In this document: piece after piece, positions 262 to 57,951 of the stretch
How positions within the stretch are numbered: position 1 is the first letter of the stretch
Layout of the letters: the number at the start of each line of letters is the position of its first letter
Origin: Planctomycetota bacterium
Lineage (GTDB): Bacteria > Planctomycetota > Planctomycetia > Pirellulales > Pirellulaceae
Length of the DNA stretch: 64,000 nt
Reading direction: 5' to 3'
Assembly (NCBI GenBank): GCA_963204965.1
Contig: CAUJKA010000218.1
Coordinates: 17,464-81,463, forward strand
Notes under the pieces: model-generated
The model's database searches: none
Seen by the model: only the letters and a program-made list of their open reading frames with translations
What the model was told of the DNA's origin: nothing
Position numbers and translations under genes: made by a program

Positions 262-936
262 TACCTTCGATCGTTTTTAAGCAACGAAATCTGTCTATAA
301 CCAGAACCAGGGCCTCACGCGAAGGCGCGAAGCCCGCTGGCTCTTCGTAGGGCGCGTGAAGAGGTCTCATACCACCTACTGAAATCAAGAACATTCTTGT
401 CCGAAGTTTGTTGGTCTGCACACCTTTATTCCGACCTCGCAACACGCCATTGCGCAACGGCTAATTCTGCCTCGACAGTCTTCTAACAAGGGGTTCGCTC
501 GTGATTCGCAGATGGTGCGTTCCGCATGCGGTCGTTCGGCGATTCGAACCTTTAGGTAAATCCGACTCAAACGTGATGCAACCTCAATTCGCAAATGCAC
601 GCTACACACACACTACGAAAACTGTTGGTGGACTCTAATGCCTGTATTGGTTGTTACATGGGGCGTTGAGTCGTTCTTTGCGAGTTCGAGAAATCGATTC
701 ACGGATTCCTCTTGCCTGGGTGAAGCTGCCGCATACGATTCGAGCGACGAAACTTGCGAAAAAATCTCGGGCTTGGCTGAGCCGCTACAAACGCTACAGA
801 CGGACCAACCGTTGAACCATCGAGAGAATTTTTCTAGTTCGAGTCAACTGATTGATTCCTGGCGTTGACGAAGCGGCGGGCGCTGGCATCAAGTGTATAC
901 GTAAATCTGTTTTTGGGCCCACCATTGGAGAGATCC

Positions 937-2772
937 ATGCAAACTCGCTCTTTCGCTCTATCAACGCTAGCTGCCGTAATTTTGGGCAGTCTTGCGTCCA
1001 CAGCGCAGGCTGGGCCTCTCATCGATTGGCTGTTTCGCGGCCGACAAACGCAACCTTCCTATCCGGTAGGCGCTCCAATCCCGCTGGGGAATGGCTACGC
1101 TGCAGGATACCCCGGTTACGCAGCAGGTTATCAAGGTTACCCTGGCTACGCCGCAGGTTACCCTGGTTACACAGCGGGATATCCAACAGCCGGATATGCT
1201 CAAATGCCGCCTGTTGGCCAGTATCCTGCTGCCCAATACAATCCAACTCCGTACAACCCCGTACCGCAATACCCTGCAGGGCAATATGCTGCTGGATATG
1301 CGCCTTCGAGTGGTTATGCGCCGAACGGTTATGCAGCGAACATGGGAAATTACTACGGTACACGTCTACCGGTGATTGGACCTAATGGCGCTGGCTACAC
1401 TGCGCAGATGCCGACTGGAATCGCTGCGGCCACTCTTCCGCAAGCTGCGATGCCGCCGAGTGCGTTGCCACAGACCGCATGGCCACAGCCGATGAGCTAT
1501 GTGCCGAACTACAACAGCAACGCTCTACGAGCTCCTGTGACCTACTACCGCCCATTGCTGACCACTGATCCCAACACGGGAGCTCAAGTCGTGGCCATGG
1601 CGCCGTGCACTTCTTACCAGTATTTGACTCAACGTGTTCCAGCTTTGGGTCAGACAGCACTCTACGGCAGCTATCAACCGCCGCAGCCCATGCTCCAAAC
1701 GACACCAACCTACACGTTGCCAAGCGGTGGAATACCTCTAGCGTCGGGATCGGTTGCTCCATCAACGATGGGATCGGGTGCCGTCTTGGGATACAGTCCG
1801 TATTCGACCTACCAAGTTAGTCCAACGGTTTCATCACCGGCCATTGTGGGCTCGTCCACCTATCCGACTACACCACTTGGATCGACCTATTCGGCTCAAA
1901 GCCACGCCTATCCAGCTCAGGTTTACAGCACGCCAAGCGGCGGGTCGACCGGCTCGTATTCACAGCCAATCCCTGGACTGGTCGCTCCACCGTCGCAAAG
2001 CTACCCTTCGTCTCCATCGAACATTAATCCATCGACCACAGCACCTGGATCGGTGATGCCGCCACCAGCAACTGGATCGAACTTTGATCCGGCCAACACT
2101 CCGCCAAGCTTGCCATTGAACAGTACACTTCGACCACGACTACAAAGCATCGTTCCAGAGGTTTCGTCGTCGCCATCGGGAGCCGAGTCGGCCCAGAAGT
2201 CGTCGGCTATCGAGCGTTCGTTGTTAAGCGAACCAACCAAGGACTTTCCTGTGACCAACCCAATCCCTGCACCAGAGGGAATGGAGAAACCCAGTTGGTC
2301 GCCAGGTTTGCTTCGCAATGAAGACATGACAGCTCTTCGACCTGCTGCTCGCCGAAACGAACTTGCAGGACAATCTAAGAAGATTCATTGGGCCAGCTTT
2401 GAACAAGATCTGAAGCTCAGCGATTCATCCAATAGTCAGCCTAAGCCGATGCAGTCTCAACCTCAATCGTCGTCGCCGATGCCATCGACCGCGCGTCCAA
2501 GTCAAGTAGAACAGCCAGTGCGTCAAACGCTAAGGCCAAGCACATCTAGCCTGGAATTAGGCGAACCACCAGTTGGTTCGCAAGAATCGCAAGTTAAGCA
2601 ACAGGTTCCGGCTAAGCAAGGAACGCCCATTGAGCAGAGGGCAACAGAGCAGCGGCCAACTGACCAGCGGCCAACTATGGTTCCACTGCGACCAAGTCCA
2701 GTTGGCCAGCCTGCTGCTAAGCCTTCGACTGGCACGTACGACAATAACGGCTGGACAGCAACGCGAAAGTAG
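937..2772 (+). CDS. Secreted Tyr/Gly/Pro/Ser-rich low-complexity protein (hypothetical)
   Basis: Track ORF 865..2772. I place the start at ATG 937 because GGAGAG lies just upstream and it exposes a signal-peptide-like MQTRSFALSTLAAVILGSLASTAQA. This is followed by GYAAGYPGY-type repeats and a long P/S/T/Q-rich region. No catalytic motif was recognised. Confidence 0.6.
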   Translation: MQTRSFALSTLAAVILGSLASTAQAGPLIDWLFRGRQTQPSYPVGAPIPLGNGYAAGYPGYAAGYQGYPGYAAGYPGYTAGYPTAGYAQMPPVGQYPAAQYNPTPYNPVPQYPAGQYAAGYAPSSGYAPNGYAANMGNYYGTRLPVIGPNGAGYTAQMPTGIAAATLPQAAMPPSALPQTAWPQPMSYVPNYNSNALRAPVTYYRPLLTTDPNTGAQVVAMAPCTSYQYLTQRVPALGQTALYGSYQPPQPMLQTTPTYTLPSGGIPLASGSVAPSTMGSGAVLGYSPYSTYQVSPTVSSPAIVGSSTYPTTPLGSTYSAQSHAYPAQVYSTPSGGSTGSYSQPIPGLVAPPSQSYPSSPSNINPSTTAPGSVMPPPATGSNFDPANTPPSLPLNSTLRPRLQSIVPEVSSSPSGAESAQKSSAIERSLLSEPTKDFPVTNPIPAPEGMEKPSWSPGLLRNEDMTALRPAARRNELAGQSKKIHWASFEQDLKLSDSSNSQPKPMQSQPQSSSPMPSTARPSQVEQPVRQTLRPSTSSLELGEPPVGSQESQVKQQVPAKQGTPIEQRATEQRPTDQRPTMVPLRPSPVGQPAAKPSTGTYDNNGWTATRK

Positions 2773-2884
2773 TTGTCCCTTGCCTCTAACCGATCGTGAA
2801 GACGGCAACCACATGAACCGCTGTCGCTATTTTTTGACGTTGCGCTATTCGGTTTTAGGGGTGAAGCCCTGTTCGTTTACCTAG

Positions 2885-2903
2885 CCCAGCCTGCAGGGCT
2901 GGG
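2885..2903. terminator. Short GC hairpin between convergent genes (possible bidirectional terminator)
   Basis: CCCAGCC-tgcag-GGCTGGG is a perfect 7-bp stem with a 5-nt loop. It sits between the stop of 937..2772 (+) and the stop of 2989..4035 (-). There is no clear U-run on either side. Confidence 0.25.
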
Positions 2904-2988
2904 TACTTCATGCGCGAGAAAAACAATGGACCAACGGCCCGAAATCCCAAAAACACTGCAACATCAAGACTAGCGACTGAGGTTCTAC

Positions 2989-4035
2989 CTAGCCGCCGTT
3001 CAGTTCTTGAAGCGTCTTCTCCATGGCCTCGGCAAGGACTTGCACGTTGGGTTCATGGATCACTGTCAAGTGATTGCCGGGGACGACGTGAAGTCGAGCG
3101 TCCGAGCACAATTGACTCCACTCCGAGAATGGCTGGCGGCGCGATGGCACAAGCTGTTCTGCTGCTTGATACAAATCCAAACGACCCGCGTAAGGTTTGG
3201 GACTGTAGTAGCAAACAGCTCGAACATTGCTTTGGAACAGTTCCATGATCCGAATGGCCACTTCATCGTCGGCCTCATCGGGGATCAACTTTGCTTCTGA
3301 GCTTAACTTGCGAAAGTCAACGATGTTCTGTTGCGCCGAACGGCCCATCATGGCCAAGACGCCAGCTCCTTCTGTAGGAGCCATCGCTTTGACAATTCCC
3401 ATCGTGTACAGCACACCGCTATCGATGATTCCGAGGTAGTCTACCTTCTCACCAGCGGCCGTAAGTTTTTGTGCGACTTCGTAGGCGATGACGCCGCCGG
3501 CGGACCAACCTGCGATATGGTAGGGACCATGCGGCTGGCGTTGACGAATTGCACTGCAATACTCTTCTGCCATTTCACTGATCGAGATCAGCGGCTGTCG
3601 GATGCCATCAACGCCTGGAGCTTGCAAGCCGTAGAATGGCTGATCTTCGCCGAGATACTTAGACAGTCGAATGTAACAAAGTACGTTGCCGCCACCGGGG
3701 TGAATGCAAAACAAAGGTGGCTTGCTGCCGTGTGCTTGAATGGGTACTAACGCGGACCATTGCGTAGGATCAGAGCTGGCGGTTAAAAGTTCGGCCATCT
3801 GTGCGATTGTCGGTGCTTGGAAAACGCCACCCGCTGGCAGTGGGCAACCGGTTTCTTGGGCGACTAATGCCAGTAGCGACATCGCGCTAATCGAATCACC
3901 ACCCAGTTTGAAGAAGTCGTCGCTCATGCTGATGGGCGAAACCGACAGGAGCTTTTCCCAAATCTGCTGTAGCTTAAGTTCAAGAGAGTTGCGTGGCGCT
4001 ATCAACGAGGGCTCGGGATCGAGTTCGGATGCCAT
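2989..4035 (-). CDS. Stand-alone carrier protein (PCP-type) fused to a type-I thioesterase domain
   Basis: The phosphopantetheine attachment motif FFKLGGDSISAMSLLA has its Ser codon at 3892-3894. The C-terminal alpha/beta-hydrolase TE has PLFCIHPGGG and the nucleophile elbow GWSAGG (Ser codon 3502-3504). The track ORF begins at TTG 4059; I prefer ATG 4035 (MASELDP...). Confidence 0.85.
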   Translation of the reverse strand: MASELDPEPSLIAPRNSLELKLQQIWEKLLSVSPISMSDDFFKLGGDSISAMSLLALVAQETGCPLPAGGVFQAPTIAQMAELLTASSDPTQWSALVPIQAHGSKPPLFCIHPGGGNVLCYIRLSKYLGEDQPFYGLQAPGVDGIRQPLISISEMAEEYCSAIRQRQPHGPYHIAGWSAGGVIAYEVAQKLTAAGEKVDYLGIIDSGVLYTMGIVKAMAPTEGAGVLAMMGRSAQQNIVDFRKLSSEAKLIPDEADDEVAIRIMELFQSNVRAVCYYSPKPYAGRLDLYQAAEQLVPSRRQPFSEWSQLCSDARLHVVPGNHLTVIHEPNVQVLAEAMEKTLQELNGG

Positions 4036-4377
4036 AGGGCTTTGACCTTGAAGGGGCAACGAGGTATCGCGCGGACGGATACGTAGGATTGGGCAAACTC
4101 ACGCCCAAAGTGATGTCCTTTGCGAGCAAGCATATAGGCTAAATGCTGGCAGCGACATGTTAAAGTCAAAAAACGCCCCTTTTTCGCAGAGTTTGCCGCT
4201 TGTTGCGCGGACCTGGAAAAATTGCGGGATTTGGCGGGCTATTACTCCCGCGTTCAGACGTCATATGTGGTGGAAAACCGACGAAGCGAGTGACACGCCA
4301 AAATGCCCCAGAGCTGCCTGAAAGTGTCCAGCAAACACGCTGATCGCAGTCGCGTTTTTCCGCTCTACGTTTTCGTT

Positions 4378-5394
4378 CTAAATTCGGACGATGCAGGCAT
4401 TCCAGGACAGCCCTACTCCGAACCCAACCAGCCCCAACCTCTGTCCAGGCTGGATCTTGCCGTAGTTTTGATACGATTCGATGGCCAATGGAATCGAGGC
4501 TGAAACGGTATTGCCAACTTGCTCCATCGCGTAAACCATCTTTGATTCTGGAACGCCGCAGCATCGTACTAGGTTTTCTAACATGAATCGATTGGCTTGA
4601 TGAAAGACCCACCAATCGACCGACTCCAATGAGAGCTTAGCTTCAGCCAGCAACCGCTTAATAGCCGCAGGAACGGTATTTAGCGCGAAGGAGAAGATAG
4701 CTTGCCCATCCATGTAGAGATCGTTCTGACTACGAACGCTACCGCTGGCATCGCGAACCTCTAACATTGTTTCAGCACTTCGTGGCATTCGAAACGCGCC
4801 GGCGGGTACAGTCAAGCATTGTGACATCGATCCATCGGTCCCCGTCACAAACGGACCAATTTGATCCTCCCCAAGATCGCTTCGGCCGATAATTGTTGCC
4901 GCAGCTCCGTCGCCAAACAAAGCTCGCACTGTTCGATCTTGTGGATGGATAAACTTCGAATAGGTATCCGCTGTGATCAGCAGAACGTTTCTTGCTGCGC
5001 CAGTTTCTACGAGAGCTTTGGCCAATTGCAAACCGCAGACGTAACCGCTACAACCCAAGCGATAATCAAACGCTCCGATGTGCTTACCAAGACCCAGCCG
5101 ATGTTGCAGAATGCAAGCGTCCGAAGGCAAGAAGTGATCTGGCGTTTGCGTCCCCACAATCAAATAGTCAATCTCGCCGGTCGGTACGATCTGTTTGGCC
5201 AGCAGTGCAGCCGCAGCCGCGTACCCTAAGTCACTCGCCGTTTCATCGACGGCGGCGATGTGTCGAGCGACGATTCCGGTCTTGCCAGCGATACGACTCA
5301 TGTCCCACTCGGGATTCTCTCTGGCGAGATCCTCGTTGGTCTCAACTTTGGCAGGAAGATAGCCTTGGATGCCTAGAATCTTAGCCGAAAACAT
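4378..5394 (-). CDS. 3-oxoacyl-(carrier protein) synthase III family (FabH-like KAS III / thiolase-fold condensing enzyme or acyltransferase)
   Basis: 338 aa, with the Cys-His-Asn triad context of KAS III: LGCSGYVCGL, WVFHQANRFM, VGNTVSASIP. Also carries DLYMDGQAIFSFA, typical of FabH-like proteins. Confidence 0.9.
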   Translation of the reverse strand: MFSAKILGIQGYLPAKVETNEDLARENPEWDMSRIAGKTGIVARHIAAVDETASDLGYAAAAALLAKQIVPTGEIDYLIVGTQTPDHFLPSDACILQHRLGLGKHIGAFDYRLGCSGYVCGLQLAKALVETGAARNVLLITADTYSKFIHPQDRTVRALFGDGAAATIIGRSDLGEDQIGPFVTGTDGSMSQCLTVPAGAFRMPRSAETMLEVRDASGSVRSQNDLYMDGQAIFSFALNTVPAAIKRLLAEAKLSLESVDWWVFHQANRFMLENLVRCCGVPESKMVYAMEQVGNTVSASIPLAIESYQNYGKIQPGQRLGLVGFGVGLSWNACIVRI

Positions 5395-5411
5395 TTAGCA
5401 AATCTCTTTCG

Positions 5412-6287
5412 TTAACCACCGACCGATTTACGAAGCACAAAGTCCATCCAACTTGTCGGCAGAATGTTATTAGCCAGAAAAGCGGCCCGCGTTCGCCAGC
5501 CGACTCGATAGTAGGGCCTAGGACGACGATGGTTGAGCGCATGCAAGACCGATCGAACGACCACTTCTGTAGCCAGCCCTGCTCGCTTATAAGACAAGCT
5601 TTGTCGTCGGGTGTTGCGCAACATCGACGCGTACAGTTGCTCTGCCTGGCCGTCGTCCTGGCTTTTCGACGGCTCCATGTTGCTACACGCTTTATCCCAA
5701 ATCGCCGTTGAGACACTATCCGGTTGAACTACAGAAACATCAATGTTCCAAGGAGACAATTCGCATCGCCATGCTTCTCCGAACGCCTCTAGCGCATGCT
5801 TCGAAGCTGCGTAGGCTCCAAAAAATGGCGGCGTAATGCGGCCGCTAATCGAACTGATCAACACCAATCGAGCTGACTGATTTTTGTTAGCCGCTTTCCG
5901 CAACAATGGTATCAATCGCTGAGTGAGTCGATGTGTACCAAAGACATTGACTTCGAACTGCTGTTGAAGCTGTTCTTGAGTAATCAACTCCAGCGGACCA
6001 GGAATCAAGATTCCCGCATTGTTGACCAAGGCATTTAGCCCGCGGTTTTGCGTTAGTTGTTCAATTGAATCGCAAGCAGTCTTTACCGACTCTTGGGAAG
6101 CGATATCGAGAATAATCGGAGTAAGATTCGCGGGTTGTTCCTGCAGCAACGACTTAGCATCCTCGTCGCGACGCACACCGGCGATCACATTCCAGCCAGA
6201 CTTAGCGAGTTCAATAGCGCTCATCCGACCAATGCCGGACGAACAACCTGTGACAACGACAGACTTACTGGGGCTCGACGCGTTCAT
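5412..6287 (-). CDS. Classical short-chain dehydrogenase/reductase (putative ketoreductase)
   Basis: Carries VVVTGCSSGIGR (TGxxxGIG cofactor loop), NNAG, and the catalytic YAASKHALEAF (YxxxK). Its ATG overlaps the upstream sulfotransferase stop as ATGA (6284-6287). Confidence 0.9.
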   Translation of the reverse strand: MNASSPSKSVVVTGCSSGIGRMSAIELAKSGWNVIAGVRRDEDAKSLLQEQPANLTPIILDIASQESVKTACDSIEQLTQNRGLNALVNNAGILIPGPLELITQEQLQQQFEVNVFGTHRLTQRLIPLLRKAANKNQSARLVLISSISGRITPPFFGAYAASKHALEAFGEAWRCELSPWNIDVSVVQPDSVSTAIWDKACSNMEPSKSQDDGQAEQLYASMLRNTRRQSLSYKRAGLATEVVVRSVLHALNHRRPRPYYRVGWRTRAAFLANNILPTSWMDFVLRKSVGG

Positions 6288-7492
6288 GTTGAGGCCTCGG
6301 TCGAATACCCATAGCGATCAAAATAGGCTCGCCAGCGAGTCACGATGGCCTCGCGCTGAGCGTCGGTGAGCTGGTGACGATTCTTTTCGTAGTTTTTGTG
6401 ATTAGCCGCGTATCGATTCCAAGCTTCACGAACCTCCGCGTTGATTGGCAATTGAAGGTGAGCGTACGTCTGCTCCAGTGCCGCGACAGGATCGGCTACC
6501 AAGCTCTCATAGCTCAACTGGTAAAGCTGCTCAGGAGGAATCGAGCGACTGTCATGATCGTAGGCTTCAAACATCTCGACGAAAGTTTGCAGGACCTCCT
6601 CTTCCAAGTGCTCGTACTTGGGAACTTGAAGAGCCTGATGCCAGTACATACGTTTCCAAGTGTGTACGGTGGACGGAAAGAGCACGAAAGGATCGCGACT
6701 GATGTGAATGAACTTGGCGTTGGGAAACTGCTCAAGAATGGCGGCGACGCGGAATGTGTGCAGCGGAGTCTTCAGCACGATGCGTTTGGGGTCGCGAATC
6801 GTCAAACACTTCATGAGCCACAACAGACCCTGCTGCCACTTACGTCGCTCGTCCGCAGGAAGAGTCTGCAAAGTTTGATAGTCGTGATCCACCATCGTTA
6901 GATTAGGAAACATGACTTTGAAATAGGGCGATGGCAGGCCCATGTTGCACAGTGCCCATTCGTCCTCTTGCGGCAGGTTCCAGCCAATCTTCATGTTGTC
7001 CATGGGCCGTTGCTTGGGCAAAAAGAACGTGACCAGGATCTTTAACCACGATTCGCTGATTAAGAAATGGTTCGGACAGAAGCAGGCATAGGTGTTGGGA
7101 AAAGTGAACGATTGGTCCAGCACAAGCAATTCATGTAGAAGCGTTGTTCCTGATCTCCAGTGACCCAGTACAAAAATTGGGGCAGCAGTTAATTCGGTCT
7201 TGGCAATCCGCCGCGAATAGAACAACCGCTGCAGTAGTGCCATCGCAGAATTCAAAACGCTCATACCGCCCAGAATTGTCGCCATGGGAGCCCTGGTGGG
7301 CGAAACGCGGAACTTGTGTCGCGACAGTGCATTCCACCAGCTCGACGCCGACATCCCGCTCCAGGCCCTCATATGCCATGGGCGATCTTTGCCCCCGGTC
7401 ACTTTGGGGCCTTGGTCTTTACGATTGGCATCAGACATTGAATGGGGGCTCGAGGCTCGCAGAATAGTTCCGAAGAGTGGGAGGTCAAACAA
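6284..7492 (-). CDS. PAPS-dependent sulfotransferase family protein
   Basis: A 5'-PSB-like loop GHWRSGTTLLHELL lies at about 7139-7172, and a 3'-PB-like HISRDPFVLFPS lies further on. The track start is TTG 7492; an alternative is ATG 7438 (MSDANRK...). Confidence 0.8.
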   Translation of the reverse strand: MFDLPLFGTILRASSPHSMSDANRKDQGPKVTGGKDRPWHMRAWSGMSASSWWNALSRHKFRVSPTRAPMATILGGMSVLNSAMALLQRLFYSRRIAKTELTAAPIFVLGHWRSGTTLLHELLVLDQSFTFPNTYACFCPNHFLISESWLKILVTFFLPKQRPMDNMKIGWNLPQEDEWALCNMGLPSPYFKVMFPNLTMVDHDYQTLQTLPADERRKWQQGLLWLMKCLTIRDPKRIVLKTPLHTFRVAAILEQFPNAKFIHISRDPFVLFPSTVHTWKRMYWHQALQVPKYEHLEEEVLQTFVEMFEAYDHDSRSIPPEQLYQLSYESLVADPVAALEQTYAHLQLPINAEVREAWNRYAANHKNYEKNRHQLTDAQREAIVTRWRAYFDRYGYSTEAST

Positions 7493-7914
7493 TGGGTAGT
7501 TTACCGCAAATTCAGAATAACCGAATAACCAACTGCCAGAGGTTGATTCAAATCCCTCCGAGAATCGGTTATTTGCAACGATTTGCCGACCCTACGGCAA
7601 TTGACAGTGACTTTAACGATTCGGACGTAGCTCTGAAGCAGTGCTCGTGAAATGTAGCTCTTAGGGAGCAGGCCGAACCTCGATCGAGCACCGACTGAAC
7701 ACCCGCGGGCAGTGGCAGCGTAATTGCTATAATCAGTCGCATAACGCCCGAAGAAGTTTTAGTTGGACTATCGTGATCGCCATTTCCCATGCCTCTCCCG
7801 CTCAATTGCCACGACATTTCCATCGTGCATGGAAGACGGGCCAAGGGCGGAGTTTCAGGTCGATCGCATCCTTGATGTTTTGGCGATGAATTTTCCACGC
7901 AAGCGGGTTGAGTA

Positions 7915-9075
7915 ATGCTTTCGCGAATTGTTGTGATCGTGGTAGTCGTAGCGGCACTTTTGGCGGGACTTTTGTACAGCCAGCGCAAGCCCAGTTCTGT
8001 TCAGGTCTCTGGGTTCATCGAGGCCGACGACATACACCTTGGATCGAGAGTCGGTGGGCGTGTGAAGTCGGTCTTAGTTCGTGAAGGGCAGCGAGTTCAA
8101 GCTGGCGACGTGCTGGTAGAGCTGGAGCCGCATGATCTCCAGGCCCGACTGAATGAAGCTGAAGCCAAACTTGCCGCGCAGAAGGCCAATGTCGATCGAC
8201 TGGAGGCTGGTTTGCTTCCGGAAGAAGTTGCGCAAGTTCAAGCAAGAATGGATCGGCTGTCATCCAAAGTCGAAATGCTGGTCGCAGGTGCTCGTCCTGA
8301 AGAGATCGAGACCGCTAGAGCTTGGCTAACTCTGGCCGAGGCTCAGGCGGATCGAGCTAAGAAGACGCATGCCCGCGCCATGGATCTATTCAATCGCGAT
8401 GCGCGAACCATTACTCGTGAGGATGTTGACAAAGCCATCGAAGATCTGCACGTGGCCGAGTCTACGATTCAAGCAAGGCAGGAGCAACTTCAGTTGCTCA
8501 CAAAGGGGACTCGTGAAGAAGAAGTTGCCGCCGCGCGCGCTGAACTAGCTGAAGCTAAAGCAGCGCTCGATTTAGCTAAGAAAGGGTACCGCAAAGAAGA
8601 GCTTCAACAGGCTCAAGCAGAAATGCGTGCCACAGAAGCAGCCTTGGCAGCAATTCAAGTTCAAATGCATGAACTCAAAATCGTCGCCAATATCGCAGGA
8701 ACGGTCGACGCCCTCGAGCTTCAGCCGGGTGATTTGGTGGCGCCCAATTCGCCGGTGCTAACTTTGCTGGACTTGGAAAATCTGTGGCTGCGAGCCTACA
8801 TCCCCGAAGACCAACTTTCCTGGCAGCCAGGCGATACTGTTGAGGTATCCGTCGATGGATTCCCCAATCAACGCATTCAAGGCACGATCAGCTTCATTGC
8901 TGGCCAAGGTGAATTCACGCCTCGCAACGTTCAGACTCCCGAAGAGCGAGCGAAACAAGTCTTCCGCATCAAAGTCAAACTGCCCAACCAAGCGGGGTTG
9001 CGAGTGGGAATGGGCGCGGACCTTTGGCTTCCGCCTGCACGGGAAAAGAGAGCGACAGCCGGAGACGGACAATGA
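7915..9075 (+). CDS. HlyD-family periplasmic adaptor / membrane fusion protein (YbhG/DevB-like)
   Basis: It has an N-terminal TM helix (IVVIVVVVAALLAGLLY), a barrel-sandwich lipoyl-like motif (VREGQRVQAGDVLVELE), a long Ala/Glu-rich coiled coil, and a C-terminal beta-barrel. Its stop overlaps the next start as ATGA (9072-9075). Confidence 0.85.
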   Translation: MLSRIVVIVVVVAALLAGLLYSQRKPSSVQVSGFIEADDIHLGSRVGGRVKSVLVREGQRVQAGDVLVELEPHDLQARLNEAEAKLAAQKANVDRLEAGLLPEEVAQVQARMDRLSSKVEMLVAGARPEEIETARAWLTLAEAQADRAKKTHARAMDLFNRDARTITREDVDKAIEDLHVAESTIQARQEQLQLLTKGTREEEVAAARAELAEAKAALDLAKKGYRKEELQQAQAEMRATEAALAAIQVQMHELKIVANIAGTVDALELQPGDLVAPNSPVLTLLDLENLWLRAYIPEDQLSWQPGDTVEVSVDGFPNQRIQGTISFIAGQGEFTPRNVQTPEERAKQVFRIKVKLPNQAGLRVGMGADLWLPPAREKRATAGDGQ

Positions 9076-11330
9076 CCGGCACTGAAAACGTCATCGAAGT
9101 TCGCAATCTCAGTCGCAATTTTGGCAAGCTGCGAGCTGTTCAAGATGTGTCGCTGTCGATATCTCGCGGATCTATTTACGGTCTGCTTGGTCCAAACGGC
9201 AGCGGAAAGTCAACGATCATTCGAATGCTATGCGGTGTGCTGATGCCTAGCTCGGGCGAGGCTAGCGTATTGGGATGGAACGTGCGTCGCGATGCCGAAG
9301 CAATCAAGCGGTCGATTGGTTATATGTCGCAGAAGTTCAGTTTGTATCCCGATTTGACCGTGCTGGAAAACCTAGACTTCTATGGCAGGATTTACGGGCT
9401 GTCCAGTCAACTTTTGCAACAGCGCAAGGACCAGTTGTTGACGCTAACGCGTTTGACGGATCGCACTTCTCAACTTGCTGGGAATTTGTCTGGCGGCTGG
9501 AAACAACGACTGGCCCTCGCCTGCTCATTGATTCACCATCCCGAAGTTCTCTTCTTGGATGAACCTACCGCTGGCATCGATCCCGTAGCTAGAAGACAGT
9601 TATGGGATCTCTTGTTTGAACTCTCCGGCCAAGGAATGACCTTGCTGGTTACGACACATTACATGGACGAGGCGGAGCGATGCAGCGAGGTAGGCTACAT
9701 CTATCAGTCGCGGATGATTGTTCAAGGTAAACCAGCTCAGCTTAAGACTCTTCCCACTGTCGCACCCAAGGGCAGCCAACGCTTTGAAATGGAAGTCGCA
9801 GGTGCTGCGCAAATGCTACCCAGCGTTCGAGCAATTCCGGGCATTCGCAGTGTGACACTGTTCGGAGAAAGACTGCATGTTTTAGCCGACGATGGTCTTT
9901 CGCCTCAGCAACTTGCGCACGAGATTGAAGGTGTTTCTGTTGAGTCGATTCGCCAAGTAGGAGCCAATTTGGAAGATGTGTTTGTTGCGATGACCGAGCG
10001 AGCGGACCAAGAAGGATTGGAGCCAATTGTTGGGAGCACGGCAGAGCCAAGTTCACCAAACACACTCCCAGGCAATGAAAGTGACGCACCTCGATCGCAT
10101 GAAGAACAAACTAAGACCACGATCTCTACCAAAGATCTCCTCGCTGATAACCGTCAAAGCCAACCGACAGGTCGTGCTTCCGGTCTTCGTGGGCTTTGGG
10201 CGGTCTTGCTTAAGGAGTTCTTTCATATTCGTCGACAACCGGCGACCATCTTCTTCATGCTTGTAGTGCCCGCACTGCAAACGATGATTTTTGGTTGGGC
10301 GATACGGACCGAAATTGAAAACGTTCCGACGGTGGTTTGGGATCAAGATGGTCGACGACATGGGCGCGAGTTGCAAGAGATGCTCACAAATTCTCGGCAA
10401 TTTCGTATCATCTCTCAGGTTCATAGCTCGGAGGAGTTTCACGCAGCTCTGAGATCGGGACAGGCTCGCGTGGGTCTGTTGATACCTGCAGACTATTCCG
10501 ATCGACTGCTGAGTGGTCAACAGGTACAGGTTCCCGTGTTGATAGACGGCAGTGACTCTCAAACGGCAACTGCATCGATGAACACAATCAACCTTCTAGG
10601 AACTCAGTTATCGATTCAAGTCGCCCGAGCAAAAGGCGAAGCGGCTCAGTTTGTTCCCGCTCGCGATCGTGCGGGCGAACTGGCGATGCCTGTCGAGATG
10701 CGACCTCGATTGATGTACAATCCAAATCTCGAAAGTGCTCGATTCTTCGTTCCAGGTTTGGTGGGAATCATCCTTCAGCTTGTAACCCTTTTCCTAACCA
10801 GCTTTGCCATCGTGCGCGAGCGTGAGATGGGAACGCTTGAGCAACTGTTCGTGACACCGGTGGGGCGCGCGGGGCTGATGTTGGGCAAATTGCTTCCCTA
10901 CGCGATCATTGGACTGGCCGAAGTGCTGATTGTGCTCAGTATCATGGTCTTCCTCTTTGACGTACCAATTCGCGGCAGTATCGGGTTGTTGCTCGCGCTA
11001 TCGGGACTTTTCATTGTCTGTAGCCTGAGCTTGGGACTCTACGTTTCTTCGATTGCGAAGACTCAGGTCGAAGCCTTGCAATTCAGTTTCATCATCATGC
11101 TGCCATCTGTGCTATTGTCGGGATTTATGTTTCCACGCGCCGAGATGCCGATGCCAGTCTTTCTTGCAACGCACTTGCTACCCGCGACCTACTTTATCGA
11201 GATCCTTCGCGGCATCATCCTGCGAGACACCGACTTCATTGACTTACTGCCTTGGATTGGTGGATTGACGGCGTGTTGCATCGGCCTTTTGATGCTCAGC
11301 ATTACTCGATTCCAAAAGCAGATCGAGTAG
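9072..11330 (+). CDS. Fused ABC transporter: N-terminal ATPase plus C-terminal ABC-2 type permease
   Basis: Walker A GLLGPNGSGKST, signature LSGGWKQRLALA and Walker B VLFLDEPTAGID are present, followed by about 6 predicted TM helices of ABC-2 type. I set the start to ATG 9072 (MTGTENVIEVRNL); the track ORF starts at 9024. Confidence 0.85.
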   Translation: MTGTENVIEVRNLSRNFGKLRAVQDVSLSISRGSIYGLLGPNGSGKSTIIRMLCGVLMPSSGEASVLGWNVRRDAEAIKRSIGYMSQKFSLYPDLTVLENLDFYGRIYGLSSQLLQQRKDQLLTLTRLTDRTSQLAGNLSGGWKQRLALACSLIHHPEVLFLDEPTAGIDPVARRQLWDLLFELSGQGMTLLVTTHYMDEAERCSEVGYIYQSRMIVQGKPAQLKTLPTVAPKGSQRFEMEVAGAAQMLPSVRAIPGIRSVTLFGERLHVLADDGLSPQQLAHEIEGVSVESIRQVGANLEDVFVAMTERADQEGLEPIVGSTAEPSSPNTLPGNESDAPRSHEEQTKTTISTKDLLADNRQSQPTGRASGLRGLWAVLLKEFFHIRRQPATIFFMLVVPALQTMIFGWAIRTEIENVPTVVWDQDGRRHGRELQEMLTNSRQFRIISQVHSSEEFHAALRSGQARVGLLIPADYSDRLLSGQQVQVPVLIDGSDSQTATASMNTINLLGTQLSIQVARAKGEAAQFVPARDRAGELAMPVEMRPRLMYNPNLESARFFVPGLVGIILQLVTLFLTSFAIVREREMGTLEQLFVTPVGRAGLMLGKLLPYAIIGLAEVLIVLSIMVFLFDVPIRGSIGLLLALSGLFIVCSLSLGLYVSSIAKTQVEALQFSFIIMLPSVLLSGFMFPRAEMPMPVFLATHLLPATYFIEILRGIILRDTDFIDLLPWIGGLTACCIGLLMLSITRFQKQIE

Positions 11331-11780: not shown

Positions 11781-12566
11781 CTATTTGTTGAACTTGCGAG
11801 CGCTCCAAGGAAGTCCAAAGATACAATAATGTGCACCTTCTATCGTATTGGTTCGATAGCGTTTGCCAGTTTCGGAAATCAACTGACGCATCGCTATTAG
11901 CGTCTTGATATTCAGGTCGCGACGTCGATTGAATTCTGCTGCAGGTAAAGGCCGCGCATCTGGATGCCACGGTGGCTCGCGCTGAGCGTCTGCATTCTTA
12001 AAATACTCGAGCATTGCATCAATCGCCTCAATCTGAACCTTTGCCGCACCTCGACTTTTGTTCTTTCGCCAGTAGGTTGCTAAGTCCATTGCGGACTTGT
12101 CGGCCGGGGAAGTCTCTCGTGGAGGAAAAAGACCGAACTGTGATCGACTGACGACGTGCAGTTCGTTTTCGAAGCCGATCAACATCGCTTCGGCAATTGT
12201 GCGACACGCTTCTCCCACAGTGACGTTATAGTCGACATAGGAGTTGACCGAATAGGAATACCTCGGATCCTCTTCATGCTCAAGCAACAGGTCAATCGCG
12301 GCATCATCTTCTGCAAGCAGTGTTTGAATCGCGTTGTAAACCAGAACTTGGCGACTCTTATCGTAACTTTCAGGAAAACGAATTGTCTGATCCTCTCCGC
12401 GACGAGCGTTTCCAAGAATGGGGGGCGTATTGTTGCGAGAAGCGAGTTGTTCGATGAGTATTTCCACTCGCTTCCGAGTACGGTCAGGCATTGCGTCGAT
12501 TGGTTGTTGCGCATGAAGGGCATGTTCAAACAGCAGGAAAGCAAATATCAACAGGATGGTTCGCAT
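11781..12566 (-). CDS. Secreted hypothetical protein
   Basis: ATG start with signal-peptide-like MRTILLIFAFLLFEHALHAQQ. It lies 68 nt downstream of polX on the same strand. No motif was recognised. Confidence 0.6.
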   Translation of the reverse strand: MRTILLIFAFLLFEHALHAQQPIDAMPDRTRKRVEILIEQLASRNNTPPILGNARRGEDQTIRFPESYDKSRQVLVYNAIQTLLAEDDAAIDLLLEHEEDPRYSYSVNSYVDYNVTVGEACRTIAEAMLIGFENELHVVSRSQFGLFPPRETSPADKSAMDLATYWRKNKSRGAAKVQIEAIDAMLEYFKNADAQREPPWHPDARPLPAAEFNRRRDLNIKTLIAMRQLISETGKRYRTNTIEGAHYCIFGLPWSARKFNK

Positions 12567-12634: not shown

Positions 12635-14368
12635 CTATCCTCTGTCGCACCAACGAAGAAACTGTTCCAGCGGCCAAGTGTTGAGCACTTGCGATTTCAA
12701 TAGCCCAGCTCGTCGAGCCTGGAGTACACCGTAGTGAATTACTTCCAAGCCATCGATCGAATGGGCGTCAGTGTTAATTGCGATGGGCACGCCAGCGGCC
12801 GAGGCTTGAATCAAATGCTGCTCGCACAAGTCAAGTCGATAGGGGCTCGAGTTCAGCTCAAGTGCTTTGCTATACTGAGCCGCCGTTGCAATCACTGCCT
12901 CCATGTCCACTTCATACGGCGGTCTGGTGCCCAGTAGTCTGCCGGTGGGGTGAGCGACGATATCCACGTTGGGATTCTGTAGAGCATCTACGATCCGTTT
13001 GGTAATCTCGTCGCGGCTTTGCTTCTGGCCATAGTGAACACTGGCGATGACCCAATCAGCTTGCGCCAGGACTTCATCGACGATATCCAATGGACCAGCT
13101 TCTAAAATGTCACATTCGACCGACTTGAGGACACGAAACGCACCTTCCAAAGTTGCGTTGATCTGATCGATCTCTTCCCACTGTTTCAAGAGTCGCTCTT
13201 CGTTCAACCCGCGAGCCATACTCACTCGCTTGGAATGGTCGGTGATCGCGATGTACTTGAGCCCGCGTTTTCTCGCTGCTGCAATCATTTCACCAATCGT
13301 ATTCGATCCATCCGACTCAGTGGTATGCATGTGCAAGTCGCACAAAATGGCTTCGACTGTGATCAAGTCTGGAATGGATGCACCCGATTCAGCCCACTCA
13401 ATCTCATGTCGACCTTCGCGAAGTTCGGGAGGAATCCAACTTAGACCGAGCTTTGAATAAAGTTCTTGTTCGGTAGTGCCATACATGGGAGGCTGGCTAC
13501 CATCTAAGTTAGTGATTCCGTATTCGTTCACCGACATTCCCATCTTACGAGCTCGTGAACGTATTGCCACGTTGTGCTCTTTCGATCCGGTGAAGTACTG
13601 CAAGGCGGCGCCAAAAGATTCCGCGGCAACGACTCGCAAATCGACTTGAAACTGAGCTTCGACTCGAATCGACATCTTCGTGTCACCTCGAGCAATCGTG
13701 CTCAATCGTCCAGGGAAAGACTCCAGTTGATCCATGACAACTGTAGGGCTGTCGCTCACAACCAAGATATCGACGTCGCCGACAGTCTCTTTTCCGCGAC
13801 GGTAGCTTCCCGCGAATTCAAGTTGCTTGATTGCCGTGCACAGCTCAAGATGGCCTCGCAAACGAAACACCAATCGCTCAGCCTGGTCGATACGTAGTCG
13901 CATCGAAGCTTGCTCGGCAATTGCCAGTCCATCTAAGATCTGTTGTTCGGACTTGGCGCCGAAGCCTTTCATGTCACGAACTTTGTGTTGCTCGCAAGCC
14001 TGGCGGAGTTCTTCAAGAGATTGAAGGTTCAGTTCCTTTTGAAGCGCCATGGCCTTCTTGGCACCGAGACCAGGAATGCGAGTCATCTGAATCAAGACTG
14101 GTGGAGTCTGAGCTCGCAGTTCTTCAAGCTGCGGAAGCTTGCCGGTTTCAATCAGCGTTTGACACTTCTGTGCAAGCGTATCGCCAATTCCAGCGATCGA
14201 TTGCAAGGGTGTCGTCGCGTCGGCCAGGATTTCTTTGACCGAGCGATTGAGTTCGAGAATAGCTTTCGCTCCCGTGCGATAGGCTCGTACTCGAAAAGCG
14301 TTTTCACCGCGGAGTTCAAGAAGGTCAGCAAGTTCTTCGAAAACTTGCGCAATATCGGCGTTGTTCAT
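12635..14368 (-). CDS. polX: Family X DNA polymerase with C-terminal PHP (polymerase/histidinol phosphatase) domain
   Basis: It shows N-terminal helix-hairpin-helix regions (GIGDTLAQK, IPGLGAKKA), a Pol-beta nucleotidyltransferase motif GSYRRGKETVGDVDILV, and PHP motifs DLHMHTTESDGS, ITDHS and NTDAHS. I set the start at ATG 14368 (MNNADIAQVFEE...); the track starts at 14392. Confidence 0.9.
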   Translation of the reverse strand: MNNADIAQVFEELADLLELRGENAFRVRAYRTGAKAILELNRSVKEILADATTPLQSIAGIGDTLAQKCQTLIETGKLPQLEELRAQTPPVLIQMTRIPGLGAKKAMALQKELNLQSLEELRQACEQHKVRDMKGFGAKSEQQILDGLAIAEQASMRLRIDQAERLVFRLRGHLELCTAIKQLEFAGSYRRGKETVGDVDILVVSDSPTVVMDQLESFPGRLSTIARGDTKMSIRVEAQFQVDLRVVAAESFGAALQYFTGSKEHNVAIRSRARKMGMSVNEYGITNLDGSQPPMYGTTEQELYSKLGLSWIPPELREGRHEIEWAESGASIPDLITVEAILCDLHMHTTESDGSNTIGEMIAAARKRGLKYIAITDHSKRVSMARGLNEERLLKQWEEIDQINATLEGAFRVLKSVECDILEAGPLDIVDEVLAQADWVIASVHYGQKQSRDEITKRIVDALQNPNVDIVAHPTGRLLGTRPPYEVDMEAVIATAAQYSKALELNSSPYRLDLCEQHLIQASAAGVPIAINTDAHSIDGLEVIHYGVLQARRAGLLKSQVLNTWPLEQFLRWCDRG

Positions 14369-14446
14369 GGATGGTGAGCTGAATAGAAACAATCGAGAGT
14401 GAAGCTAAATTGAGCTTTGGACTAAGCCTCAATTGTGGCGATTCCC

Positions 14447-15198: not shown

Positions 15199-18100
15199 AT
15201 GCCAAATGCCGGAAATCAGGTACAGCCCATCGCAATTGTTGGAATGGCTTGTCGCTATCCTGGAGAGTTGGAAGATATTCAAAAGCTCTGGGAAGGGCTG
15301 CGCAACAAATACAACGCTATCTCCGAAACGCCACCTGATCGCTGGTCCGCTGATCGTTATTACTCGGCGAACGAAGCTTCTCGAGGCAAAACATATGTTC
15401 GCCGCGGTGGTTATCTGAAGCGCGATCCGCGACTCTTTGACGCGGGATTTTTCGGCATTTCGCCGCGCGACGCAGAGAACATGGATCCGCAGCAACGTTT
15501 AATGCTGGAAGTTACTTGGGAGGCGTTTGAAAACGCAGGTCTCAATCTTCCCGAGCTTGCGCGCCGAAGTGTGGGTGTGTACGTCGGCGGCTTTATGCTG
15601 GACCACATGATCACACAGATGTCGTTTGCCAATCGATCTGCGATCAACCAATACAGCGCAGCGGGCATGATGATGACCATGTTGTCCAATCGTGTCTCCC
15701 ACACGTTTGACTTCCGCGGCCCCAGCCTTTCTATCGATACCGCCTGTTCATCATCACTCGTCGCATTTCACTACGCTTGCCAAGATATTTGGAAGTCGGC
15801 ATGTGAACTGGCCGTTGTTGGTGGCGTCAATGTGATGATGCGGCCCGAGTATCCCATTGGCATGTGCAAAGGCCATTTTCTTGCCAAAGACGGACAGTGC
15901 AAGTCGTTTGATGAACGAGGCGACGGATATGGCCGCGCCGAAGGTGCGGGCGTAGTTTTGCTCAAGCCTCTTTCGAAAGCAATCGAAGACGGCGATGACA
16001 TTTGGGCAACAGTCATTGCAACTGGAACCAATCAAGACGGTCACACTCCAGGTATTTCCATGCCTAACGGTGAGGCTCAAGCAGATTTGATCCGCGAGGT
16101 TTGTAGCAAATACAACGTAGATCCACGTTCGGTTCAATACGTCGAATGCCACGGAACCGGAACGGCTATCGGCGACCCGACCGAAGCTGGCGCAATCGGA
16201 ACGACCTATGGTGTTGGACGAAGCGAAGACAATCGAGTCATCATCGGCACGATCAAGAGCAATCTAGGACACATGGAAGCTGGTGCTGGTGTAGCCGGTA
16301 TCATCAAGGCGACGCTCACGTTACACCATCGAGAGACTTCGCCGCTAGCCAATCTACAAACGCCCAATCCAAACATCAATTTCGATGCCTTGGGTGTGAA
16401 GCTATCCGATGCAAAGTACCAGCTTGTATCTACCGACTCGACTCCAGTTCGCGCCGCGGTCAATTCCTTCGGATACGGCGGATCAAATGCTCACGCCATT
16501 CTTCAAGCCTTCGATCATTCTGTCGAACAGAACTCCGCTCAGCCGCGAAATGGCTTCGTCGGTGCCGACAATTCCGTCGAATCGTTGCCAATGATGTTGC
16601 CAATTACCGGGCGAAGCGTCAACGCGGTCAACGATTTGGCACGCTGCTACTACGAGATGCTCGAAGCAGGCACAAATCTCGACGATCTGATCTACAGCCT
16701 AATCCGCCGTCGCGCGCATTTGACTCAGCGACTCGTTGTGGCCGGACGTAATAGCGAAGATCTCAAAAAGAATCTGAAGGCTGTCCTCGATGGAGAAGTC
16801 GCCGGACAGTTCGCTCGGGGACAAAGTCCATACTCCGGCTCGGGTAAGCCAGTCTTTGTGTTCACTGGCATGGGCCCGCAGTGGTGGGCGATGGGTCAGG
16901 AACTTTACGCTCAAAACTCAGTCTATCGCAACGCAGTTGATAAAGCGGATCGAGTTTTCCAATCGATTGCTGGCTTCTCTGCTTTGGCTGAGATGATGAA
17001 GGACGAGCAAAGTTCGGAAATCACTAAGACTGAATTTGCACAGCCTGCGAACTTCTTGATTCAAATTGGACTCACTGAAGTACTTCGTTCACGCGGCATT
17101 GAACCAGCCGCATGCGTGGGACACTCAGTGGGTGAGCTAGCTTCGGCGTATGTCGCTGGAGTGCTTTCCTTAGAAGACGCGATGACGGTCTGCTACCATC
17201 GAAGCCAACAGCAAGCCAAAGCTCGCGGAGCTGGAAGCATGATCGCTGTTGGAGTCAATCTAGAACGCGCCAAAGAGTTGGTGGCAAACTGTGATGGAGC
17301 CGTTTCGATTGCCGCGATCAATGGTGAGACCAATATCACCTTAGCCGGTGAAACCGAATCAATCGTTGCCATCTCCGAAGAGCTCACTACACAAAACGTC
17401 TTCAATCGATTGTTGGAAGTCGAAGTTCCTTACCACGGTCCAGCTATGGACCCGTTGATGGAGCCATTGGCTTACGATCTCCGTTCGATTCAGCCTAAGC
17501 TTCCAACAATGCAGCTCTATTCGACCGTTACGGGACAACGAGTCGATGGTGTTGCCTATGGAGCAGGTTATTGGCCGAAGAACATTCGTCAGCCTGTCGA
17601 ATTCGTTCAGGCAATCCGCAGCGCGATCAACGACGGGCACACGATCTTCATCGAAGTCGGTCCTCACCCGGTTCTGGCAACGTCATTGAAAGAGTGCATC
17701 CAAAGCTCGGGCAAGGACTGTCGCCAACTTTTCACTCTCCGACGAAAAACCTCGGAAGTGGAAGCCATGGATCGCTCGGTGCTGGAGTACTACGCTTTTG
17801 GTGGACGACTAGCTTGGAATAAGATCATTCGTCCTGGCAAGATCATTGGCTTGCCGAATTACTCTTGGCAACGTGAATTGCTCTGGGTTGAAAACGATCG
17901 CGCGGGACAAGATCGCCGTGAAATTGTGACCCATCCTATCCTAGGTATCCAAGAAGCACCGGCGACGTGCGCCTATCGTAACGATTTCGATTTTGAATCG
18001 GTCAATTACCTTCGCGATCACCAAGTGATGGGGTTGCCGATCCTTCCTGCCGCTGGATACATCGAGGCGTTCATGGAGCTGGCAGGAATTGAGTTTTCGC

Positions 18101-21555: not shown

Positions 21556-21605
21556 TAGTAGGGAATTGATCTTCGATCGTTACTCAAAAATACAAAAAAA
21601 CAAAT

Positions 21606-22961: not shown

Positions 22962-23022
22962 TGTTGACGCTTGGCCAAATGATACGCCCCTTTCAACTGG
23001 CAGATAAATTCGAGAGACGCCG

Positions 23023-26696: not shown

Positions 26697-26723
26697 TACG
26701 AATCAATTGCAAGAGAGACTTCC

Positions 26724-57333: not shown

Positions 57334-57951
57334 GTGAGAGCACTGAGATTCATACTGCTAGGGCTGGTTCCATTGGTCGCTCTAGTTTCATTTTTAGCCT
57401 CGGAGGTTCGCCAAGCTAACGTCCTCACCACGGATTGGCGTGACCTTACCGTCGTTGGACGCGGTTACATCAAGACCGTCGACGCTAGTTCTGAAAATCC
57501 GCTTTGGCTTCGCACCGTTCGGCTTGAAATTGATCCTCAAGGAATTCTATGCGCCAACTTCAACGGAAGTTTGCGGCCCATTGAGCCTGTCATTAACGTC
57601 CCCAGCGACTGGACCTATTTAGTGATCGAACCTTCAGGCCAGGTCTTCATAGGTAATTCTGGAGTAAGTGGCGATTCCGTCATTGGACAAATGTCGCTAT
57701 CACTCAATTACGCAAGTTCGGCGGAGCCAGAAGTTCTCAAACTATCCGACACATCGGCGCCGCTAGTCGAAGTTCAGCCAGGCGAAAGTGGATCTGGATT
57801 CTTAATGCAACGGATGACGACGCAGAAGTGCATTCCAATTGATGGAAGAACACTATCGTCGATCGTGCTGACCATCGTTGTTTGTGCCTTTGCCACATCT
57901 TATCTTTTCGCGTGGCGTATACGCCCGGATTTGTTGATCAAACAGACATGA
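57334..57951 (+). CDS. Hypothetical protein with hydrophobic N- and C-termini and a core faintly resembling flagellar rod/hook (FlgF/G) middle domains
   Basis: The GTG start is preceded by AGGAAG. N-terminal segment LRFILLGLVPLVALVSFLA and C-terminal segment LSSIVLTIVVCAFATSYLFAW are hydrophobic. The core carries GRGYIKT, IDPQG, IEPSGQVFIG, VIGQMSL and PGESGSGFLMQ. Confidence 0.5.
   Translation: MRALRFILLGLVPLVALVSFLASEVRQANVLTTDWRDLTVVGRGYIKTVDASSENPLWLRTVRLEIDPQGILCANFNGSLRPIEPVINVPSDWTYLVIEPSGQVFIGNSGVSGDSVIGQMSLSLNYASSAEPEVLKLSDTSAPLVEVQPGESGSGFLMQRMTTQKCIPIDGRTLSSIVLTIVVCAFATSYLFAWRIRPDLLIKQT

Follow-up and report, generated by a model that had tools for sequence, protein, structure and literature searches.

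What is made by a set of adjacent genes that encode, largely as separate proteins, the activities with which certain multidomain synthases form terminal olefins? The question is raised by a 64,000-nucleotide stretch of DNA from a Planctomycetota bacterium (Pirellulaceae; assembly GCA_963204965.1, contig CAUJKA010000218.1; this whole stretch is hereafter called the window), in which four genes on the minus strand encode a sulfotransferase (ST), a short-chain dehydrogenase/reductase (SDR), a β-ketoacyl-acyl carrier protein synthase III (KAS III) and a peptidyl carrier protein fused to a thioesterase (PCP-TE). The initial annotation of this DNA read them as a dissociated version of the terminal modules of CurM and of cyanobacterial olefin synthase (Ols). 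A comparison of related loci leads us to regard KAS III together with PCP-TE as the functional unit that does not vary, and ST and SDR as an accessory pair that was repeatedly lost or gained. We tentatively propose, at somewhat less than an even chance, that the operon is a lipid-building and tailoring unit composed of a two-gene core and a two-gene add-on, and that its product is a sulfate-ester amphiphile. The genes and their junctions are as follows.

6284..7438, minus strand: ST, preferred model, ATG at 7438, 384 amino acids, a predicted 3'-phosphoadenosine 5'-phosphosulfate (PAPS)-type, Stf1/Stf9-like Sulfotransfer_3 protein
6284-7492, minus strand: ST, mechanical open reading frame (ORF), TTG at 7492; Pfam PF13469 Sulfotransfer_3 1.5e-32, 114 bits against a cutoff of 27
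5412..6287, minus strand: SDR, 291 amino acids, a classical SDR; Pfam adh_short 4e-42
4378..5394, minus strand: KAS III, FabH-type, 338 amino acids; Pfam ACP_syn_III and ACP_syn_III_C
4036..4377, minus strand: intergenic spacer between KAS III and PCP-TE, 342 nucleotides, sequence read directly
2989..4035, minus strand: PCP-TE, preferred model, ATG at 4035, 348 amino acids, a stand-alone didomain protein
2989-4059, minus strand: PCP-TE, mechanical ORF; Pfam PP-binding 8.8e-14 and Thioesterase 7.3e-35
2928..2940, minus strand: weak terminator-like hairpin about 50 nucleotides 3' of the PCP-TE stop codon, from a pattern scan only

All four genes are present as ORFs and Pfam confirmed the enzyme classes that the initial annotation had given them. 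The overlap of ST and SDR (ATGA at 6284-6287) and the gap of exactly 17 nucleotides from the SDR stop to the KAS III ATG were both read directly in the sequence, and the ST and SDR genes are translationally coupled via the overlap. The earlier description of the operon as tightly packed therefore holds for these two junctions but not for KAS III and PCP-TE, which lie about 342 nucleotides apart with the trimmed PCP-TE start; in orthologous cassettes of other species this gap ranges from 57 to 700 nucleotides. ATG 7438 for ST and ATG 4035 for PCP-TE are the most likely starts, since the resulting lengths match homologues and also independent gene calls made on other assemblies of the same organism. 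A search of the whole window against Rfam at gathering thresholds gave no match, the 342-nucleotide spacer included. A promoter and terminator scan of positions 2500-8200 gave site counts no higher than those of shuffled sequence, with none above chance in the spacer, and for this reason we drew no transcription-unit boundaries. The hairpin at 2928..2940 could mark the end of the operon; such sites in the region are no commoner than in shuffled sequence.

A core pair and an accessory pair

Gene architectures were counted by tblastn over fetched loci, which are given here by their handles.

ST-SDR-KAS III-PCP-TE, same order: the window, L013, L001, L002, L003, L008, L095, L020, L021, L023, L030, L033, L103
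ST-KAS III-PCP-TE, without SDR in 15 kb: L025
KAS III and PCP-TE only: L010 (divergent), L011, L016, L017, L018, L019, L022, L100
KAS III and PCP-TE, convergent, on a short contig: L104

This order of the four genes was seen in no fewer than 13 separate Planctomycetota metagenome lineages, which is more than chance would give and bears out the operon that had been suggested from the window. Because they recur in constant order while the flanking genes are unrelated, the cassette is a self-contained unit and not an appendage of the polyketide synthase/α-oxoamine synthase (PKS/AOS) cluster that neighbours it here. This touches on a second idea of the initial annotation, in which SDR and ST tailor the amino-ketone of that cluster (15199-22961) and KAS III transfers an acyl group to N or O, so that a sulfated ceramide-like lipid results. 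The PKS, which has ketosynthase (KS), acyltransferase (AT), dehydratase (DH), ketoreductase (KR) and acyl carrier protein (ACP) domains, and the AOS-type aminotransferase lie 7.7 kb away and include no ketoreductase that would act on the AOS product, and SDR gives a sub-threshold match to the 3-ketodihydrosphingosine reductase KdsR (143 bits against a cutoff of 400). However, a divergent HlyD/ABC pair, a hypothetical gene and DNA polymerase X lie between the two units, the orthologous cassettes examined have no PKS or AOS within 8-10 kb, and KAS III retains the full Cys-His-Asn condensing triad. We consider such a role in the neighbouring pathway very improbable.

The initial annotation had also suggested a neighbourhood survey for the co-occurrence of ST with the carrier-TE protein, and its outcome ran against an obligate partnership. 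In at least 8 lineages KAS III and PCP-TE are found, in varying orientation, with neither ST nor SDR within 7-10 kb, and one cassette (L025) has ST without SDR, so that ST and SDR look like an add-on. KAS III, on the other hand, adjoins PCP-TE wherever the sequence suffices, and the divergent pair of L010 and the convergent pair of L104 bring the number of orientations to three. Neighbour-joining trees of KAS III and PCP-TE are congruent, with the ST-less pairs interleaved with the ST-bearing cassettes; the two proteins co-evolve. In L016 (5971-8010) and in the equivalent region of L017, both of them Pirellulaceae metagenome-assembled genomes (MAGs) without ST or SDR, two minus-strand ORFs of 514 and 163 amino acids, neither with a Pfam match, stand between KAS III and PCP-TE. 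The most distant PCP-TEs (about 42% identity; L028 7902-10419 and L029 7875-10440) adjoin aroA, the gene of 5-enolpyruvylshikimate-3-phosphate synthase, with no KAS III nearby. No conserved adenylating enzyme, acyltransferase, decarboxylase or second carrier was found beside these two or beside the ST-less pairs of L016, L019 and L022; the neighbours of the five loci are unrelated (ThuA, DUF1501, HAD, integrase, aroA and unknown proteins).

The closest genome match is an uncultured Pirellulaceae MAG with 96% identity across the four proteins. In a scan of one genome per species, the family members with at least 40% identity to PCP-TE all belong to Planctomycetota (Pirellulaceae, Planctomycetaceae, Thermoguttaceae and Aureliella), and each of them is a MAG. 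The cassette was not described in the literature found on ST with KAS III and TE in Planctomycetes, on planctomycete sulfated lipids, on discrete ST/TE alkene systems or on bacterial alkyl sulfates. As far as the literature could be searched, it is a so far undescribed combination of known enzyme kinds, found only in uncultured Planctomycetota. Outside this phylum, a MAG of Ardenticatenaceae (Chloroflexota; L055 443-2585) has a PCP-TE resembling those of nonribosomal peptide synthetases (NRPS; 33% identity) directly followed by an ST homologue (34%), an adjacency of ST and carrier-TE on a contig that ends just upstream.

Family assignments of the four proteins

KAS III passed the NCBIfam model NF006829 (beta-ketoacyl-ACP synthase 3) with 287.9 bits against a cutoff of 249 and failed TIGR00747, the fabH equivalog, with 252 bits against a cutoff of 292, which places it by sequence in the FabH-type family but not in the equivalog. 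Individual residues were read from an alignment of 22 family members with E. coli FabH, in which residue numbers are indicative only. The catalytic triad Cys115-His265-Asn295 is invariant in all 22 sequences, as are Trp32, Arg151 and Phe213 (E. coli FabH numbering), which contact coenzyme A (CoA). Two positions differ from E. coli FabH throughout the family: Phe87 is replaced by Leu (residue 89 of KAS III), and Arg249, at which AcpP docks, by Phe or Tyr (residue 270). The latter replacement is consistent with a different carrier partner.

Among solved structures, those of FabH match KAS III at 1e-40 to 1e-105 and PqsD (3h76) at 3.6e-41. By far the best relative is 3GWA (4.5e-105 over the full KAS III length), and the two have in common an insertion of 16 amino acids (KAS III residues 205-220). 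The 3GWA protein is BURPS1710b_0096, a FabH paralogue with a locus tag distant from those of fabD/fabG (BURPS1710b_2906/2905) and given no function (PMC3561365). The initial annotation had drawn an analogy to the Ole systems, where OleA is the thiolase-fold enzyme, but OleA structures gave partial matches at 1e-15 to 1e-17, and DpsC and CerJ were absent among the structure matches at E <= 1e-10. With scores in the FabH range and the triad intact, a KAS III of the OleA, DpsC or CerJ type is not supported, and neither is the analogy. The sequence fits a true decarboxylative condensing enzyme that would be primed by acyl-CoA and would work with a carrier other than AcpP.

Could KAS III instead be the FabH of primary metabolism, so that its place beside PCP-TE reflects, for example, fatty-acid priming with an editing thioesterase? 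Thousands of planctomycete proteins are 55-62% identical to it, at least one of which (L093) stands alone outside any cassette, and the generic FabH-family model accepts it. We nevertheless think a housekeeping role improbable: the score falls short of the equivalog cutoff, the nearest solved relative is a Burkholderia FabH paralogue outside the fab operon, the AcpP-docking Arg is lost, and KAS III co-evolves with PCP-TE and is adjacent to it in three orientations.

PCP-TE has a carrier domain (about residues 17-90) with the phosphopantetheine Ser48 in LGGDS, and a type-I TE domain (about residues 105-345) with the triad Ser178-Asp205-His322 and the motif GWSAGG. The carrier Ser and the three triad residues are invariant in the family alignment, and the NRPS-type carrier that the initial annotation had singled out as an oddity is indeed there, as LGGDSIS in the PP-binding domain. 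Its best sequence matches in the PDB are AB3403, EntF and Pks13; the EntF PCP-TE didomain scores 2e-32 over residues 19-334, and the NCBIfam Pks13 model matches at 96 bits. An AlphaFold 2 (AF2) model (predicted local distance difference test score, pLDDT, 85) led Foldseek to AB3403, EntF and the TEs of Pks13, NocB and FASN, and aligned with the PCP-TE didomain structures 3tej, 2roq and 8w2d. The CurM TE, which is lid-less and with which the initial annotation had suggested a comparison, was absent from the best 50 of more than 1,100 significant Foldseek matches. The protein has the features of an NRPS-type PCP-TE termination didomain and is atypical in standing alone, without condensation or adenylation domains; from sequence and model, its TE is predicted to be an ordinary lidded Ser-Asp-His type-I TE. 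Stand-alone PCP-TEs of about 345 amino acids form a compact family whose identity to the window protein lies between 98% and about 40%, and below about 40% the matches are pieces of ordinary NRPS/PKS termination modules. No TE residue specific to ST-bearing cassettes was found at a threshold of conservation in at least 12 of 13 ST-bearing and at most 1 of 7 ST-less sequences. Whether or not ST is present, the TE thus seems to be offered one and the same substrate, which puts the action of ST later than release.

The relatives of the TE suggest a further possibility, namely that it transfers or cyclises the KAS III product (onto an alcohol or sugar, or into an oligomer or lactone) and that SDR and ST decorate the resulting ester or lactone lipid. 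The nearest relatives, EntF, AB3403, Pks13, NocB, Vlm2 and ObiF1, are enzymes that transfer or cyclise, and the Pks13 model is among the matches. The Pks13 TE transfers onto an alcohol or sugar acceptor, the EntF, Vlm2 and ObiF TEs oligomerise or lactonise, and keto reduction after TE transfer has a precedent in Pks13/CmrA. However, no acceptor-making gene is conserved beside the KAS III/PCP-TE pair, whose flanks differ in every lineage, and the TE of FASN, which simply hydrolyses, matches just as well in structure. A transferring TE is, in our view, decidedly unlikely.

SDR carries the motifs TGCSSGIG (TGxxxGIG), NNAG and YAASK (YxxxK), and an Arg-Arg after strand β2 suggests that it uses NADP(H). 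The best NCBIfam models were PRK05993 (205 bits), PRK06914 and PRK08017 (186 bits), all below their cutoffs; besides KdsR, FabG (NF009466) matched at 107 bits and Pfam KR at 56 bits. The best matches in the PDB are DHRS9 and 17β-hydroxysteroid dehydrogenase 1 (17β-HSD1). SDR is therefore of the 17β-HSD/retinol-dehydrogenase type rather than the FabG/KR type, which is a family placement only. By analogy, its closeness to enzymes of free lipophilic carbonyls (DHRS9, 17β-HSD, PRK08017 and KdsR) points to a free substrate.

In ST, the GxxRSGTT motif of the 5'-phosphosulfate-binding loop (here GHWRSGTT) and the RDP motif of the 3'-phosphate-binding site (here SRDP) are invariant in the family alignment; these motifs, like those of the carrier and the TE, are seen in the translations as the initial annotation had quoted them. 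A comparison with the CurM ST clade, however, turned out in favour of mycobacterial Stf1 and Stf9 by both methods used. With phmmer against the PDB, Stf1 (2zq5) scored 4.4e-9 and Stf9 (2z6v) 7.3e-8, and the CurM ST 5.7e-3 over residues 235-357 only. With the AF2 model (pLDDT 91), Foldseek placed Stf1 (E 2e-13) and Stf9 on top at template modelling (TM) scores of 0.60-0.67 (Stf9 0.67), with the CurM ST at rank 3 (E 3.4e-7, TM 0.36/0.47) and the Ols ST at rank 12; the TM scores of CurM and Ols together span 0.36-0.50. The Stf9 alignment begins at residue 50, within the N-terminal extension. Judged by its motifs and by this N-terminal helical extension, ST is a member of the Stf1/Stf9-like PAPS sulfotransferases. 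Many of its homologues carry JGI names after Stf3, the menaquinone sulfotransferase, and the planctomycete STs that share about 50% identity with it are commonly solitary and lack a neighbouring carrier or KAS. These relatives point, by analogy, to a free acceptor.

Proposed release and tailoring, and the olefin alternative

In the pathway that we propose, KAS III would carry out a decarboxylative condensation of an acyl-CoA primer with malonyl on the phosphopantetheine arm of PCP to give 3-oxoacyl-S-PCP, from which the fused Ser-Asp-His TE would free the 3-oxo fatty acid. Free 3-oxo acids can lose CO2 spontaneously to give methyl ketones, a logic known from PqsD/PqsE. SDR with NADPH would then reduce the free ketone to a secondary alcohol (a 3-hydroxy acid or a 2-alkanol), and the Stf-type ST would transfer sulfate from PAPS onto that hydroxyl. 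The pathway would end with an amphiphile that carries a stable, anionic sulfate ester, namely a sec-alkyl sulfate or a 3-sulfooxy fatty acid. A free lipid alcohol is converted to a stable sulfate ester by Stf3, which makes sulfomenaquinone S881. The proposal starts from what was observed: how the genes are built, which domains they encode, that the catalytic residues are intact, that the cassette is conserved and that ST and SDR are present or absent as modules. It reads the core chemistry from family membership and conserved residues; we infer the identity of the substrate, the chain length, the order of the steps, hydrolysis rather than transfer by the TE and the route of malonyl to an NRPS-type carrier. 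Release first, then SDR, then ST is the order with the fewest assumptions, because ST and SDR are dispensable and the TE appears without adaptation to ST, and also because the relatives of both tailoring enzymes act on free lipophilic substrates and close stand-alone paralogues of ST exist.

Several points weigh against the sulfate-ester pathway. The family to which an SDR or an ST belongs gives only a weak indication of whether its substrate is free or carrier-bound. The cassette encodes no enzyme for loading malonyl onto the NRPS-type PCP, and FabD or self-loading has to be assumed. A sulfate-ester product needs no carrier-TE at all, and the exact match to the activities KS-KR-ACP-ST-TE is what an olefin pathway predicts. 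The lineages that lack ST beside the core may hold ST and SDR elsewhere in their genomes, which weakens the argument from an add-on. In the L028 MAG a KAS III homologue (59% identity; L093 8001-9017) lies on another contig than PCP-TE, so that the core pair itself can be unlinked. Finally, every carrier of the cassette is an uncultured MAG.

In the olefin alternative, the cassette would be a dissociated, type II-like CurM/Ols terminal-olefin pathway and thus an independent invention of sulfate-activated olefin formation in Planctomycetota. KAS III would again give 3-oxoacyl-S-PCP, SDR would reduce it on the carrier and ST would sulfate the carrier-bound 3-hydroxyl; in the last step, hydrolysis by the TE with decarboxylative elimination of the sulfate would yield a 1-alkene. 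We regard this pathway as unlikely. It has the merit that five activities match KS-KR-ACP-ST-TE one-to-one within one conserved operon and that a simple keto acid would not otherwise usually be made with a carrier-TE. The CurM ST is moreover the next-closest solved structure after the two Stf proteins and, like ST, a Sulfotransfer_3 protein, and the use of sulfation to activate a leaving group has precedents among the Foldseek matches, including retinol dehydratase and LGS1.

However, ST is far nearer in structure to Stf1/Stf9 than to the STs of CurM and Ols, as the TM scores given above indicate. The CurM TE has a Ser-His-Glu triad and a sulfate-recognising Arg, whereas the cassette TE, with Ser-Asp-His and a helical lid, groups with EntF, AB3403, Pks13, NocB and FASN. 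The same TE family occurs without adjacent ST and SDR in the ST-less lineages, with no ST-specific residue, one cassette has ST without SDR, and SDR is not of the KR/FabG type. Olefin formation would require that an ordinary TE eliminate sulfate, that carrier-bound substrates be accepted by an ST of the Stf type and an SDR of the 17β-HSD type, and that the same TE family deal with unsulfated substrates in other lineages. The cassette falls outside the CurM/Ols ST-TE family, from which it departs in three defining features: the clade of the ST, the type of the TE and the obligate pairing of the two. Nor is it an Ole system. The olefin hypothesis of the initial annotation thus keeps its formal match of domain sets and is weakened overall by the relatives of ST and TE and by the pattern of their co-occurrence.

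Neighbouring genes, significance and comparison with known systems

The remainder of the window holds several other gene groups. Divergent from ST, across an intergenic region of 476 nucleotides, lie an HlyD-type membrane-fusion protein and a fused ABC ATPase::ABC-2 permease (7915-11330, plus strand). In the organism at hand, this pair could serve to export what the cassette makes; in other lineages the two units are not kept adjacent. The plus-strand cluster at 15199-31385 contains the type-I PKS (KS-AT-DH-KR-ACP, 2118 amino acids), the α-oxoamine-synthase-type aminotransferase, a Zn-alcohol dehydrogenase/enoyl-reductase-like protein, a metallo-β-lactamase::HlyD fusion, an AcrB-type resistance-nodulation-division (RND) pump and a flavin amine oxidase. 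The probable role of this cluster is to synthesise a lipid of the long-chain amino-ketone or amino-alcohol kind and to export it; in other genomes it is found unlinked to the ST cassette. DNA polymerase X/PHP (12635-14392, minus strand) and a Ser/Thr kinase with TPR repeats (31510-34536, minus strand) lie between the clusters. An ORF of 7079 amino acids at 34540-55779 (minus strand) has four MBG_2 domains, one PKD domain and RTX repeats in its C-terminal half and no Pfam match in its N-terminal 3500 amino acids; its product looks like a giant surface or adhesin-type protein. It was considered as an NRPS able to load PCP and rejected, as it has only MBG, PKD and RTX repeats. ORFs of 635, 261, 205 and 598 amino acids without a Pfam match occupy 865-2772 (plus strand), 11781-12566 (minus strand) and 57334-60001 (plus strand).

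If the cassette does make a sulfate ester, four genes, compact and portable as a set, would lead from acyl-CoA to an anionic surfactant or signal that is an alkyl sulfate or a sulfooxy acid. To our knowledge, genetically defined bacterial routes to aliphatic sulfates seem to be lacking, and Planctomycetota are known mainly for degrading sulfated polymers. Such a product would also provide the first physiological acceptor for the large Stf-like family, in which Stf1 and Stf9 are without known substrates. If an olefin is made, sulfate-activated decarboxylative alkene formation would have arisen anew, by convergence, from dissociated parts, and the cassette would offer small mix-and-match enzymes for α-olefin production. 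Either way, KAS III with a stand-alone PCP-TE is an uncharacterised two-gene unit that joins a fatty-acid-type condensing enzyme to an NRPS-type carrier. The cassette is a clean, compact target for genome mining, and nothing yet points to unusual chemistry.

How does the cassette compare with systems already described? The terminal module of CurM and Ols (KS-AT-KR-ACP-ST-TE) has the same set of activities, and its ST likewise belongs to Sulfotransfer_3. The parts of the cassette, however, are separate proteins except for the PCP-TE fusion; its condensing enzyme is a KAS III and not a type-I KS with AT, its carrier is an NRPS-type PCP, its ST is Stf1/Stf9-like, its TE is a canonical lidded Ser-Asp-His enzyme, and related cassettes dispense with ST and SDR. 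The mycobacterial Stf1 and Stf9 are the closest to ST both in sequence and among solved structures, and they have in common with it the PAPS loops and an extended helical region at the N terminus. The identity over the structural alignment is only 16-17%, and Stf1 and Stf9 are not known to have a KAS III or PCP-TE partner.

PqsD and PqsE of Pseudomonas aeruginosa resemble the proposed core, in that a KAS III makes a β-ketoacyl thioester from which a thioesterase frees the β-keto acid. PqsD, however, uses CoA thioesters without a carrier, PqsE has a metallo-β-lactamase fold and not that of an α/β-hydrolase, and neither an SDR nor an ST takes part. BURPS1710b_0096 of Burkholderia pseudomallei (3GWA/3GWE) is like KAS III in its 16-residue insertion and its change of Phe87 to Leu; it comes from another phylum and was a structural-genomics target of uncharacterised function. 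Pks13/CmrA of mycolic acid synthesis and OleABCD also combine thiolase-fold condensation and an α/β-hydrolase or TE with subsequent SDR reduction of the β-keto group, and the Pks13 TE is among the best matches of the cassette TE. The cassette, in contrast, has neither OleC or another AMP-ligase nor a partner of the FadD32/AccD4 type, and those systems have no sulfotransferase. Taken as a whole, the cassette behaves as a hybrid in which a type II system primed by FabH is combined with the termination didomain of an NRPS and with lipid sulfation of the Stf type.

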